From: a virus
Lineage: Duplodnaviria; Heunggongvirae; Uroviricota; Caudoviricetes
Virus record (IMG/VR): IMGVR_UViG_2639762987_000003
Direction: 5' to 3' (one strand)
Length of the DNA stretch: 48,166 nt
Below, piece after piece: positions 934-14,179 of this stretch. Below the pieces are notes generated by a model that made no database searches, was not told where the DNA came from, and worked only from the letters and a program-made list of their open reading frames with translations. Every line of letters begins with the position of its first letter. Position 1 is the first letter of the stretch. Made by a program: the position numbers and the translations under genes.

Positions 934-1009
934 TGGTGGCCCCTACCGGATTTGAACCGATGACCGTGCGATTATGAGTCGCCTGCTCTAACCACTGAGC
1001 TAAGGGGCC
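934..1009 (-). tRNA. tRNA with CAU anticodon; acceptor, D and anticodon arms resemble E. coli tRNA-Ile2 (ileX-type), elongator tRNA-Met not excluded
   Basis: Reverse complement folds as a 76-nt cloverleaf: 7-bp acceptor stem GGCCCCT/AGGGGCC, D-arm GCTC-AGTGGTTA-GAGC, anticodon loop CTCATAA, T-arm ATCGG-TTCAAAT-CCGGT, terminal CCA encoded. Confidence 0.85.
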
Positions 1010-9498: not shown

Positions 9499-10155
9499 AT
9501 GAAAAGCAACGACGAGAACATCAAGAAAGAAATAGGTCTGCGCATTCAGACTCTACGGAAACAATCCGGCATGACTGCCGGAGATCTCCAGCAAGTCACT
9601 GGAATAGGCTTAAGCACCTTGCAGAACTATGAGGCCGGATTAAGACAACCATCTATACCTGCCATCAAGAAAATCGCGCACGCCCTGAAAGCATCAGCGC
9701 CTTATATCGCGTGCTTAACAGATAACCCGTTCCCACCCCAGAATACTAACGCTCCTGTTATTCCTGGGCTTGTAGCTATAAAAAATGACATAGCATCGCA
9801 CGCCGGAGAAAAGCCAGTGCTGGCGATAGAACAGGAGATTCTACGAAGCAAGAACATCAACCCATCGTCTCTGTCAGTTCTCCAGAGCAACGATGAGTTA
9901 ATGTCACCAACAATATCCCCAGGCTCCCAAGTCCTGATTAATACAGACGATACAGAGATTCATGAGGGGATCTATGCCCTTGAAGACAGAAATGGCCTGG
10001 TTGTTTTGAGGCACTGTAGAGTCATACCGGGTGACAATGCTGTTATGCTGTCAACCGAAAGGGATGCTGAAATGAACACTAAGCATCTGAATAACGAGGA
10101 ATTTAAGCGTTATAAAGTTCTTGGCCGCGTAGTTAGTGTTGTCAACTGGTTATGA
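9499..10155 (+). CDS. CI-like repressor (N-terminal HTH, C-terminal LexA/S24-like fold)
   Basis: HTH segment (MTAGDLQQVTGIGLSTLQNYEAG) and C-terminal domain alignable by eye to lambda CI; the Ser of the S24 'SM' motif appears replaced (DELMSPT). Confidence 0.7.
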   Translation: MKSNDENIKKEIGLRIQTLRKQSGMTAGDLQQVTGIGLSTLQNYEAGLRQPSIPAIKKIAHALKASAPYIACLTDNPFPPQNTNAPVIPGLVAIKNDIASHAGEKPVLAIEQEILRSKNINPSSLSVLQSNDELMSPTISPGSQVLINTDDTEIHEGIYALEDRNGLVVLRHCRVIPGDNAVMLSTERDAEMNTKHLNNEEFKRYKVLGRVVSVVNWL

Positions 10156-11469: not shown

Positions 11470-11718
11470 ATGGCCGCACCATCAAAACCACCAAAGAAGA
11501 ACAGCAAAGGCGTACCGCCATCGATCGAACAACCGCAGGTTTTCGACCCGACTGAAACGCCAACCAGAACCAAATCAGGTGGGGCACAAATGGCGTTTAA
11601 CGTCGACCCTGAATTTAAACGCGAGTACAAAACGTTCGCCAGCTCAATGGATATGTCATTGAAAGAAGTGCTGACAAAGTCTTTTGAGTTACTCAAGGCT
11701 CAATACAACCAGAAGTAA
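11470..11718 (+). CDS. Small ParG-like (putative ribbon-helix-helix) partition partner
   Basis: 82-aa protein with a Pro/Lys-rich flexible N-terminus, directly after parA; fold assignment is inferred from size and position. Confidence 0.45.
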   Translation: MAAPSKPPKKNSKGVPPSIEQPQVFDPTETPTRTKSGGAQMAFNVDPEFKREYKTFASSMDMSLKEVLTKSFELLKAQYNQK

Positions 11719-11780
11719 GAGAAGGTGACGGCCTCCAGCGCCAACTGTTGGCCGTCGCGACACAACAAGGGGAATTTGTT

Positions 11781-11930
11781 ATGTCCGAGCAACAATATAC
11801 ACGGTTACTGAAAACTCGTCTAACCGACCTCAAACGGCTGCAAGCTGGCTGCTTATTTGCCCTGCTATCCACCAGGCCAGAATGGGTACGTGAAGCAGTT
11901 CTGAAAGGCTTAATGCGCTCCAGCGTTTAA
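11781..11930 (+). CDS. Hypothetical small protein
   Basis: ATG preceded by AAGGGGAA; 49 codons. Confidence 0.35.
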   Translation: MSEQQYTRLLKTRLTDLKRLQAGCLFALLSTRPEWVREAVLKGLMRSSV

Positions 11931-11937
11931 ATTCAGC

Positions 11938-11963
11938 CATAAAAAAAGGCCCCCGAAGGGGCC
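11938..11963 (-). terminator. Rho-independent terminator for minus-strand transcription
   Basis: Stem aggcccc/ggggcct with GAA loop, followed on the minus strand by 7 U. Confidence 0.65.
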
Positions 11964-11969
11964 TAATCG

Positions 11970-12092
11970 CTACTTGCTGCTAATGTTTATCGTCACATTC
12001 AGAGCGTTATCAGTAATCTTCCAACCCTCCCCATGTGGCGTAAACAAAGCCCCAGTAACAACGATAAAAATACACATACAGTATTTTTTCAT
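11970..12092 (-). CDS. Candidate 40-aa hydrophobic peptide (possible type I toxin or small secreted peptide)
   Basis: MKKYCMCIFIVVTGALFTPHGEGWKITDNALNVTINISSK; AAGGG 8-12 nt upstream of the ATG; own terminator downstream. Confidence 0.35.
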   Translation of the reverse strand: MKKYCMCIFIVVTGALFTPHGEGWKITDNALNVTINISSK

Positions 12093-12415
12093 TGTATGGC
12101 CCTTACAGGCCGTTTCACGGCATCCCCACCGACGAAAACAACGCGAGAGCAAGCACGGCTGCTTGTGCTTGCATGTACGGCAACGGAGAATCCTCCCCTA
12201 AAGTCGGTGCCCGGGTGCGAATCGGCGGGAAGGTCCACAGGTATTTTACGATTATTTTAAGATTAGTAATAGGAAAGAAATTAAACGAAAAAACTCGTTT
12301 ATTTTCACAAAATCAGTAACCTACCCACAATCTGTGAGTTTGCAGGCACAACAAGAACCACAATTTTTTGAAGCATAATAGTGGACTATTATTACCTTTT
12401 GGGTAAAATTAACTT

Positions 12416-12516
12416 GCTGCTTGTGCTTGCGTGGTTGTTTATACAACAACGTAATGCTGAAAGGACCGCGAATCCGATCAGCACGAAAGAACCGTCCTCA
12501 ATAGGGCGGTTTTTTT
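12416..12516 (+). ncRNA. Candidate ~100-nt sRNA, 5' 15-nt complementary to the leader of the 11970..12092 mRNA
   Basis: TAAAAT -10-like element at 12404-12409; 15-mer gctgcttgtgcttgc at 12416-12430 is identical to 12158-12172; two internal hairpins; terminator 12491-12516. Confidence 0.35.
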
Positions 12517-12535
12517 GTTTCTGCCTACCAATAAA

Positions 12536-12550
12536 CCCACGCTATGTGGT
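12536..12550. promoter_or_regulatory. Operator-like CCAC-N5-GTGG site upstream of the antirepressor leader
   Basis: cccacgctatgtggt, followed by TAAAAT (12560-12565) and TTGACA (12575-12580). Confidence 0.5.
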
Positions 12551-12585
12551 TGTCTCTGTTAAAATCCCGCCGTATTGACATGAAT

Positions 12586-12682
12586 GCGCCATTGGTGGAC
12601 ACTTTCCGAGCCGTAGCAAAATCTACGGTCGGGATTGGAACCCCGTGGACACAATGGCGCATACCGCGTTAGCGGTTTTTTT
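12586..12682 (+). ncRNA. Candidate structured regulatory RNA domain (P1 c4-like antisense RNA analogue)
   Basis: 9-bp closing stem gcgccattg/caatggcgc (12586-12594 with 12652-12660) encloses a hairpin and the element GAUUGGAACC; ends with a short hairpin plus 7 T. Confidence 0.35.
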
Positions 12683-12848
12683 ATGCGTAAAGCACTGCTA
12701 CACCCAAATTATGGTGGGGCGTGCGGGGGAGTCGTAAGACTCGCCGGTTCGTCATTGTGTCCGGTAGTTCCAACCCTGCACGTCTCACCACCCAATGATT
12801 GGAACCTGACGGTGGTGAGTATCCTTAACCTTTAAGGGAATCATCACA

Positions 12849-13040
12849 ATGACAAACCTACCCCATGACTATTACGTCAACCTCGTAAAGATCCTTCTCA
12901 AGAAAGCCTCATACGCCGATAAATTCCGCCTGGCTGAAATCATCGAGCGCGAAGCTATGCGCATCGCCAGCAACGATAACGCTGTTTCTGACGCAAAAAT
13001 CTCCCTCGTAACCAAAGTAGTTATGGGAGGTGCAAAATGA
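12849..13040 (+). CDS. Small protein upstream of and overlapping ant (icd-like position)
   Basis: 63-aa ORF with AAGGGA 9 nt upstream; its stop overlaps the ant start. Confidence 0.4.
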   Translation: MTNLPHDYYVNLVKILLKKASYADKFRLAEIIEREAMRIASNDNAVSDAKISLVTKVVMGGAK

Positions 13041-14179
13041 AAACGCTTCCGACCGTTAACACCCTACAGCCTATCCTGCATAACCAGATCCCCGTTATCA
13101 CTAGTGAACTTCTGGCGCAGTTATACGGAACAAAAATCAAAAACATTTCTGATAACTTTCTGAACAACACGACGCGATTCGTAGCCGGAAAGCATTACTT
13201 TAAAATTGAAAAAAACGAATTACGCGAGTTCAAGAACAGACCCGAAACAATCGGGTTAGTTGGTAAAAATGCCCGCTCCCTAATTCTCTGGACCGAACGC
13301 GGGGCTGCACGTCACGCTAAAATGCTCGAAACCGATCAGGCGTGGGATGTATTCGAACGGCTGGAAGACTGCTACTTCAACCAGAACGCGCAAACGGCCG
13401 CGACCGTAACCGTCTCGCCAAACAATGCTCGTGAGGTTGTCGATACGCTCAACGCCAAACCGATGTTTTACATTAAGGTGTGCAATAACGAGCCACTCAC
13501 AACCTCAGCCGATGTTGCCCAAGCATTCAGCACCACAAACAATTCCATCGTTATGGCCATCGATGCGTTACGCATTCCTCGCACAGCTGCGGCGCGTCAT
13601 TTCTTTAAAGAGCAACGACCGTTGGAAGGAAGCGACCGCGAAATAACAATCTATCGCATGACAAAAGACGGATTTACCTTGCTCATGGAGAGTATCGACG
13701 GTCCAGGCGTGAAAGATATCAAGCTGGCCTACATTGAAGCCTTTAACGCTATCAGCAGCGTGTTAAAAACACAGTACGAGCGTGATCTGGCTAAACGACT
13801 GTACCAGGAAAAAACGATTATCCGCGCGGCAACAGAGCATAATCGGCTATTAACGGAACCGAACTACAGGAAGGAACTAATAAAGGAGTTTGACAAGGCA
13901 ACAGGGAAAACCAAAGCGGCGCTAAATCTGCCAGCAATGACTCAGGAAAATGTGATATCAGCCTTACTTCTTGATCTGCTCAGAAACGCCAGAGCACTTA
14001 TCAGCTTTGACGAAAATCTGAACCCTCAGCTCAAACTACTACCACCGACAGGCAAAGTAGTCGACCAAGCTGATCACAACAGCATACTCAGCGTACTGGA
14101 TGCAAACCTGCCAGCCAGGACACTACAGGAACTGATAAAAATATCTGCGGATAAACTGGCCGCAGGTGCAAAACCATAA
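13037..14179 (+). CDS. Antirepressor (Ant-like)
   Basis: 380-aa protein whose N-terminal region resembles antirepressor N-terminal domains (ITSELLAQLYGTK...RFVAGKHYFKI...LWTERGAARHAKML). Confidence 0.7.
   Translation: MKTLPTVNTLQPILHNQIPVITSELLAQLYGTKIKNISDNFLNNTTRFVAGKHYFKIEKNELREFKNRPETIGLVGKNARSLILWTERGAARHAKMLETDQAWDVFERLEDCYFNQNAQTAATVTVSPNNAREVVDTLNAKPMFYIKVCNNEPLTTSADVAQAFSTTNNSIVMAIDALRIPRTAAARHFFKEQRPLEGSDREITIYRMTKDGFTLLMESIDGPGVKDIKLAYIEAFNAISSVLKTQYERDLAKRLYQEKTIIRAATEHNRLLTEPNYRKELIKEFDKATGKTKAALNLPAMTQENVISALLLDLLRNARALISFDENLNPQLKLLPPTGKVVDQADHNSILSVLDANLPARTLQELIKISADKLAAGAKP

Follow-up and report, generated by a model that had tools for sequence, protein, structure and literature searches.

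The region directly upstream of a 63-aa ORF and an anti-repressor gene in the 48,166-nt stretch of phage DNA analysed here (the window) very probably forms a secondary immunity module of the phage P1 immI type, in which a C4 antisense RNA silences the anti-repressor of a plasmid prophage. As a copy of the familiar P1 C4 antisense switch the module is ordinary, although it had gone unannotated. New here are a previously unlisted combination of recognition sequences and, as a small variant, a target element that lies on a start codon; the known picture of C4 systems is unchanged. A preliminary description had proposed the P1 c4 architecture for this locus, and the annotated P1 immI region indeed matches it element for element. 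That description covered a single set of complementary elements only (a1, a' and a2 in P1 terms), to which a b set (b1, b' and b2) can now be added.

The 601 nt around the module recur with 100% identity in several circular plasmids (~47.5-48.2 kb, e.g. NZ_CP020518.1) of clinical E. coli isolates, and with 96.7% identity in Yersinia phage vB_YpM_39. The annotation of NZ_CP020518.1 contains myovirus-type head, tail and lysis genes as well as RepA and ParA. Hence, by comparison with this near-identical plasmid, the window is a 48-kb E. coli phage-plasmid, i.e. a plasmid prophage. The RefSeq record of the plasmid shows no feature and no RNA gene between the ParA-side genes and the small ORF. A functional annotation is thus gained for ~470 nt left blank in RefSeq, in a phage-plasmid family present in clinical E. 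coli, Salmonella, Klebsiella and Yersinia, and the module is likely to be the lysis-lysogeny safety catch of this phage-plasmid. A profile search identified a CI-like repressor (9499-10155) through HTH_3 and a weak S24 peptidase match; it is the obvious candidate target of the anti-repressor.

A covariance-model search, suggested as a check by the preliminary description, placed a C4 antisense RNA (Rfam C4, RF01695) at 12707-12795 on the + strand, with 77.8 bits (gathering score 45), an E-value of 1.2e-13 and a full-length match to model positions 1-87. The mature C4 RNA is predicted to span ~12713-12792 by analogy with P1. The MFE fold of this segment (-46.1 kcal/mol, z -6.2) has the Rfam C4 shape, with a closing stem (12712-28/12774-90), hairpin 1 (12729-33/12738-42) and hairpin 2 (12743-47/12761-65). 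The b' element occupies the loop of hairpin 2 (12750-60), while a' (GUUCCAA, 12767-73) is single-stranded ahead of the 3' strand of the closing stem. The middle element proposed earlier, GTTCCAA(CC) at 12767-12775, is therefore correctly described as a complement but not as a partial one, since it lies inside a complete C4 RNA.

The C4 match is separated by a 25-nt gap from an IsrK-type leader, or short RNA, at 12610-12682 (+ strand), which contains both a1 and b1. Rfam isrK (RF01394) scores 65.8 bits over this segment, terminator included (gathering score 50), and by the curated Rfam thresholds the locus thus belongs to both the C4 and the IsrK RNA families. The leader folds into two hairpins (12610-16/12623-29 and 12630-33/12642-45) that covary among 41 relatives. 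The loop of the second holds a1 (UUGGAAC, 12635-41), and b1 follows at 12649-12659, where it can form 11 bp with b', one G-U among them. A terminator scan identified an intrinsic terminator (stem 12663-67/12672-76, U-run to 12682), in agreement with the short hairpin plus T-run reported previously and here placed at 12663-12682. The C4 and c4-a1b1 motifs were both described in 2010 (PMC2864571), and the c4-a1b1 layout, with two hairpins upstream of C4 carrying complements of a' and b', is present here. The corresponding model (RF03163) matches 12597-12649 with 37.8 bits (E 5.7e-8), which is under the gathering score of 46.7; its first 13 positions correspond to the promoter -10 region, which is divergent in this locus. 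It is the middle element, and not the first domain of the preliminary description, that represents the antisense RNA; the first domain is an IsrK/c4-a1b1-type leader with its own terminator.

A putative sigma-70 promoter is located at 12575-12603 (+ strand), consisting of a -35 hexamer TTGACA (12575-12580), a 17-nt spacer and a -10 hexamer GACACT (12598-12603). In an alignment, the relatives show TTGAnn/TAnAnT hexamers at these positions; of the annotated P1 promoter P1c4 (P51b), the aligned stretch includes the -10 alone. A consensus promoter scan did not list the 12575-12603 promoter, owing to the weak -10 hexamer. Transcription would begin around G12610, the first position of the isrK model. 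A stem-closed domain had also been proposed at 12586-12660, and this segment does fold well in this sequence alone (z -4.8). However, its 9-bp closing stem (12586-94/12652-60) is paired in 40.9% of cases across the relatives, equal to shuffled and slid controls, and its 5' arm (12586-12594) falls within the spacer between -35 and -10 and is thus probably not transcribed. The closing stem was rejected on both grounds. Further upstream, a highly stable hairpin at 12484-12518 (+ strand; -19.6 kcal/mol, z -6.0) is flanked by an A-run on its 5' side and a U-run on its 3' side; going by its predicted fold, it resembles a bidirectional terminator separating the ryfA side (see below) from the C4 promoter. 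The terminator scan did not list this hairpin. Given its strength as a terminator hairpin, read-in from upstream is unlikely. A match to RNAI at 12450-12517 (E 0.29) was dismissed as chance, reflecting only a terminator hairpin.

Downstream of C4, a2 (UUGGAAC, 12799-12805) can form 7 bp with a' (12767-73). It is presented by a hairpin at 12784-12819 (+ strand; -14.0 kcal/mol, z -2.7) that is real but longer than the 8 bp originally claimed, comprising 9 bp (12784-92/12811-19). This hairpin is 91.9% paired over the 41 relatives, compared to 27-60% in slid controls, and appears in the centroid of the whole-leader fold. The compensatory evidence for it is modest, as the changes all reflect a single split between the P1 clade and the other relatives. 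The a2 hairpin and the C4 fold are mutually exclusive, since the final 7 nt of the C4 closing stem, on its 3' strand, also serve in the 5' arm of the hairpin. The b2 target (CACAAUGAC, 12845-12853, + strand) is complementary to the C4 b' loop and spans the AUG (12849-51) of the small ORF; the 9 bp between b' and b2 (12751-59 with 12845-53) have a predicted duplex energy of -13.2 kcal/mol. An alternative local hairpin is found at 12812-12847 (+ strand; -14.3 kcal/mol, z -2.5), in which GUGGUGA (12812-18) pairs with UCAUCAC (12841-47) and the Shine-Dalgarno AAGGGA (12834-39) is sequestered by an inner stem (12822-28/12832-38). The equivalent arm pairs with at least 4 b2 bases in the MFE fold of 26 of the 41 specificity types, P1 included, whereas only 3 arm bases pair within b2 in the window. 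A regulatory function of this hairpin may be considered on the basis of the predicted folds. The segment GGUGGUGAG (12811-19) hence has two alternative partners: the C4 3' strand, which leaves a2 displayed in a loop, or 12841-47, which leaves the Shine-Dalgarno buried.

Folding of the whole leader (12610-12870) yields an MFE structure in which a1b1 pairs with a'b' in cis (-102.4 kcal/mol), while local hairpins combined with the C4 fold reach -95.4 kcal/mol. Under the cis optimum, the C4 structure could form only if the RNA folds co-transcriptionally. RNAcofold analysis of C4 with its targets showed no intermolecular gain; the loop-loop contacts are pseudoknots, which lie outside the reach of this model.

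The 63-aa leader ORF (12849-13040, + strand) was taken from the ORF list and occupies the position of P1 icd. As previously observed, it overlaps the anti-repressor ORF, its stop and the start of the 380-aa ORF sharing ATGA. It matches phrog_7886 over its full length (E 2e-47), a family of unassigned function, and has 39 homologue clusters, most of 63 aa and with 60-98% identity, in Enterobacterales (E. coli, Salmonella, Yersinia, Klebsiella, Hafnia, Erwinia). A Pfam search gave no match for the 63-aa ORF, and BLASTP gave no alignment with P1 Icd at E<=100; the PHROG families also differ (7886 for the 63-aa ORF, 1426 for Icd). The earlier label icd-like hence applies to position and size, but not to sequence. 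The anti-repressor candidate (13037-14179, + strand, 380 aa) contains ORF6N (Pfam, 1.4e-20) and Phage_pRha (2.8e-12) domains, matches PHROG anti-repressor families, and is preceded by a good Shine-Dalgarno of its own (GGAGG, 13024-28). It is not homologous to P1 Ant1 (best BLASTP E 4.8): both proteins fall into PHROG 'anti-repressor' categories, with different best families. Given that neither the small ORF nor the anti-repressor is a homologue of Icd or Ant1, Rho polarity and translational coupling may differ from those of P1.

Two annotation matters concern these genes. The annotation of NZ_CP020518.1 splits the anti-repressor gene (11554-12696) into two pseudogene fragments, one for ORF6N and one for Rha, unlike the window, where the 380-aa gene is intact. 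Gene calls in some relatives lengthen the 63-aa ORF upstream to a 95-aa 'ash family protein' (window ~12753-12848). The Pfam Phage_ASH (PF10554) match covers residues 2-39 of these 95-aa proteins, which is mostly the 32-residue extension. A comparison with the nucleotide sequence of one relative indicates that these extra residues result from reading the C4 RNA gene (its 3' half) and the a2 hairpin as coding sequence. Hence, part of the Phage_ASH profile may model an RNA gene, and annotations as 'Ash family protein' can come from translation of a C4 gene.

To compare the elements across relatives, viral contigs were searched for exact matches to the 15-nt C4 5' strand. The resulting 120 loci, together with P1 and two close relatives, gave 96 distinct sequences with 41 distinct (a', b') combinations; P1 and Gifsy-1 were among the related loci compared. 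Complements of a' (6-8 bp) were found in every combination, both ~72-85 nt upstream of C4 and 3-9 nt past the C4 end. For b', a complement of 6-12 bp occurs upstream near -58 to -70 in most types, and another of 6-12 bp lies 21-52 nt past the C4 end. Across the 41 specificity types, a', a1 and a2 vary in concert, as do b', b1 and b2. Cognate duplexes were more stable than non-cognate ones in 4/4 comparisons, by 2.6 to 5.6 kcal/mol (-8.6 vs -6.0, -8.7 vs -5.4 for a':a2, -11.7 vs -7.2, and -12.8 vs -7.25 kcal/mol for b':b2).

The folds are likewise conserved. Over the 41 aligned sequences, pairing is retained at 94.3% in the local hairpins and C4 stems, compared to ~40% in slid controls, and both partners have changed in 17 pairs of C4. 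For the long-range a1:a' and b1:b' pairs the value is 82.9% (32-49% in slid controls), with both-side changes in 15/18 pairs. An alignment count gives 62.5% pairing for the a2/b2 pairs, a value affected by MAFFT misplacing the variable a2 and by a b2-AUG distance that differs by type; a2/b2 pairing was therefore assessed by the alignment-free search. The comparison set thus combines a fixed C4 scaffold with three short recognition elements that vary in concert. It represents a clean natural experiment in heteroimmunity that could guide compensatory-mutation tests.

The most informative comparison is that between the window and vB_YpM_39, which differ at 20 positions in 568 nt. Of these differences, 13/20 fall in b1, b' and b2: all three b elements are swapped, and the altered b' keeps pairing with the altered b1 and b2. 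P1 and P7, whose heteroimmunity maps to immI, differ by a change of this same type (PMC6906374). The a' and b' elements occur in many mixed combinations, for example a P1-type a' with a P7-type b' and the reverse, which suggests reassortment of the two elements by recombination. One viral contig was found to carry two C4 modules ~1 kb apart, at about 2411 and 3416 (+ strand), which share an identical b' loop but differ in a' (AGTTCCAA and AGTGCAAA).

The order annotated for P1 immI (promoter P1c4, a1, b1, c4, a2, b2, icd, ant1) is reproduced here with almost the same spacing. Both loci have a terminator-like hairpin in the leader, a2 a few nt after C4, and the 4-nt ATGA overlap between small ORF and anti-repressor. 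They also share the C4 fold, an identical 17-nt stretch (AAUUAUGGUGGGGCGUG) running into the 5' strand of the closing stem, and a plasmid-prophage lifestyle. P1 itself scores 68.8 bits for C4, 51.0 bits for c4-a1b1 and a weak 35.1 bits for isrK over the same leader. The recognition sequences differ, with a' being GUUCCAA here and CUGUCAA in P1, and b' being CGUCAUUGUGU here and CACUAAC in P1. Furthermore, b2 covers the AUG here (-4 to +4), while the b2 of P1 and of most relatives lies over the Shine-Dalgarno region (-20 to -9); by analogy, either placement would block initiation. The proteins are also distinct. The small ORF is unrelated to P1 Icd, the anti-repressor is of ORF6N+Rha type here and of Ant1/2 type in P1/P7, and the primary repressor has a CI/LexA-like HTH with a weak S24 match, as opposed to C1 in P1. 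No C1 operator is known at the promoter here, unlike P1 immI, and the carrier is a 48-kb myovirus-type phage-plasmid that is not a P1 relative. Judged by these sequence comparisons, the locus is of immI type by layout but lies outside the P1 immI protein set.

The Gifsy-1 prophage of Salmonella offers a second reference. At NC_010392 34131-34329 (- strand), isrK (79.3 bits) is followed after the same 25-nt gap by C4 (69.0 bits) and then by anrP, so the experimentally studied IsrK locus has the same architecture. Gifsy-1 IsrK also matches c4-a1b1 above threshold (48.1 bits). Common to both loci are a leader that exceeds the isrK threshold, terminator included, and an anti-repressor-like gene after C4. 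Based on its position ~25 nt after isrK, the 'orf45'/STnc1160 region of Gifsy-1 appears to be a C4 gene; the Gifsy-1 isrK locus would thus contain a C4 gene where 'orf45' was placed. The loci differ in that orf45 overlies the C4 region of Gifsy-1, with the anti-repressor directly next, whereas a separate 63-aa ORF starts 57 nt past the predicted C4 3' end here. The isrJ gene of the Gifsy-1 locus and antQ are absent beside the locus here.

In the proposed mechanism, a constitutive promoter (~12575-12603) would drive transcription from near 12610. The first 73 nt would form the two hairpins showing a1 and b1 and the intrinsic terminator, giving a short IsrK-like RNA in addition to read-through transcripts. 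P1 C4 is processed from the operon transcript to ~77 nt, with RNase P cutting the 5' end; by analogy, the C4 fold (12713-12792) would be excised from the read-through RNA as a ~80-nt RNA. On the operon mRNA, a2 (12799-12805) and b2 (12845-12853) would then be bound by the single-stranded a' and the b' loop of this RNA, respectively, and initiation at the 63-aa ORF would be blocked by the pairing of b2 over its AUG. In P1, Rho polarity limits transcription of ant when the small ORF is untranslated. With the 63-aa ORF untranslated here, the anti-repressor would be neither translated by coupling nor fully transcribed, presumably through the same Rho polarity. The prophage would remain repressed, and incoming phages of the same a/b specificity would be barred from expressing Ant. 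This is in line with P1, where C4 is required for full ant repression (PMC8198154). Weighing against the scheme are the weak -10 hexamer, the cis optimum of the whole leader, the c4-a1b1 score under its threshold, the lack of homology to Icd and Ant1, and the good Shine-Dalgarno that the anti-repressor has of its own. In Gifsy-1, the IsrK short form binds Hfq and activates translation of the read-through mRNA in trans (PMC4825925), raising anrP translation >100-fold; anrP is also derepressed by mutations in the leader that make the cis pairing weaker (PMC4825925). Given these trans and cis data and the same cis MFE in the present leader, a1/b1 most likely compete for C4, either in cis, while the transcript is still unprocessed, or in trans in the form of the short RNA (cf. 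Gifsy-1 IsrK over-expression).

The Gifsy-1 data can also be read without a C4 antisense RNA, in that the read-through mRNA is kept untranslatable by a1b1 pairing with a'b' in cis, until the short RNA opens the fold in trans and switches the anti-repressor on. The isrK score of 65.8 bits and the identical Gifsy-1 architecture favour such a scheme. The cis pairing leads the MFE of 12610-12870 by 7 kcal/mol and corresponds to the 'structure A' of the Gifsy-1 authors (PMC4825925), whose experiments back both the cis structure and trans activation. Yet the complementarities involved are those of the C4 model, and a C4 decoy predicts equal activation in trans, making the two schemes compatible. Cis pairing alone does not need the conserved and covarying C4 stems, and leaves the conservation of a2/b2 and their covariation with a'/b' unexplained. 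Moreover, the regulated ORF starts downstream of C4 here, while orf45 starts inside it. As the explanation of this locus, the IsrK-style scheme is thus unlikely.

We consider it even less probable, to the point of being a marginal option, that the processed RNA pairs with its flanking copies to cause premature transcription termination, as the CI RNA of satellite phage P4 does, instead of blocking translation. P4 CI is likewise a processed small RNA between two copies of its complement that acts in prophage immunity (PMC4825925). The authors of the IsrK work remarked on the common layout (seqA - CI - seqC; PMC4825925), and an intrinsic terminator directly follows a1/b1 here. However, the terminator scan found no terminator-like site between a2/b2 and ant, and in Rfam the locus, like that of P1, matches C4 best. 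The position of b2, on the start codon here and on the Shine-Dalgarno in most relatives, points to control of initiation. That the repeats are chance occurrences, or relics with no regulatory role, has almost nothing to commend it. The 10-mer GATTGGAACC is present exactly at 12633-12642 and 12797-12806, as first reported, and these are the sole exact copies in the 48-kb window, where 0.08 are expected; 1 of 100 shuffles had at least two. With one mismatch allowed, the 10-mer is not enriched over shuffles, and the window has 9 copies of its 7-mer core (7.3 expected); what stands out is hence the exact pair and where it is placed. The second, independent b triple, the covariation of the a and b triples across 41 types, and two covariance models above their thresholds all argue against coincidence, and the chance or relic reading is refuted as far as sequence analysis reaches.

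An extension of the favoured C4 antisense model is more tentative and somewhat doubtful as a whole, namely a three-state RNA switch. In it, the IsrK-type leader would titrate C4 as a terminated decoy, GGUGGUGAG would switch between its two partners, and the a and b elements would reassort independently. If true, the 'C4 repressor' of P1 and the 'IsrK activator' of Gifsy-1 would be two halves of one mechanism. In addition, a/b reassortment would generate dozens of immunity types, with the window and vB_YpM_39 as a natural b-only swap.

The window contains further RNA matches. Directly upstream of and divergent from the module, a full-length match to ryfA was found at 11942-12238 (- strand; 141.8 bits, threshold 80). 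A 40-aa hydrophobic ORF (11973-12092, - strand), for which a Pfam search gave no match, is situated within it. RyfA of Salmonella encodes the small toxin TimP (PMC7667032), and the ryfA copy may thus be a type I toxin-antitoxin serving plasmid maintenance. A tRNA gene (67 bits) is located at 937-1009 (- strand), and is annotated as tRNA-Ile in the near-identical plasmid.
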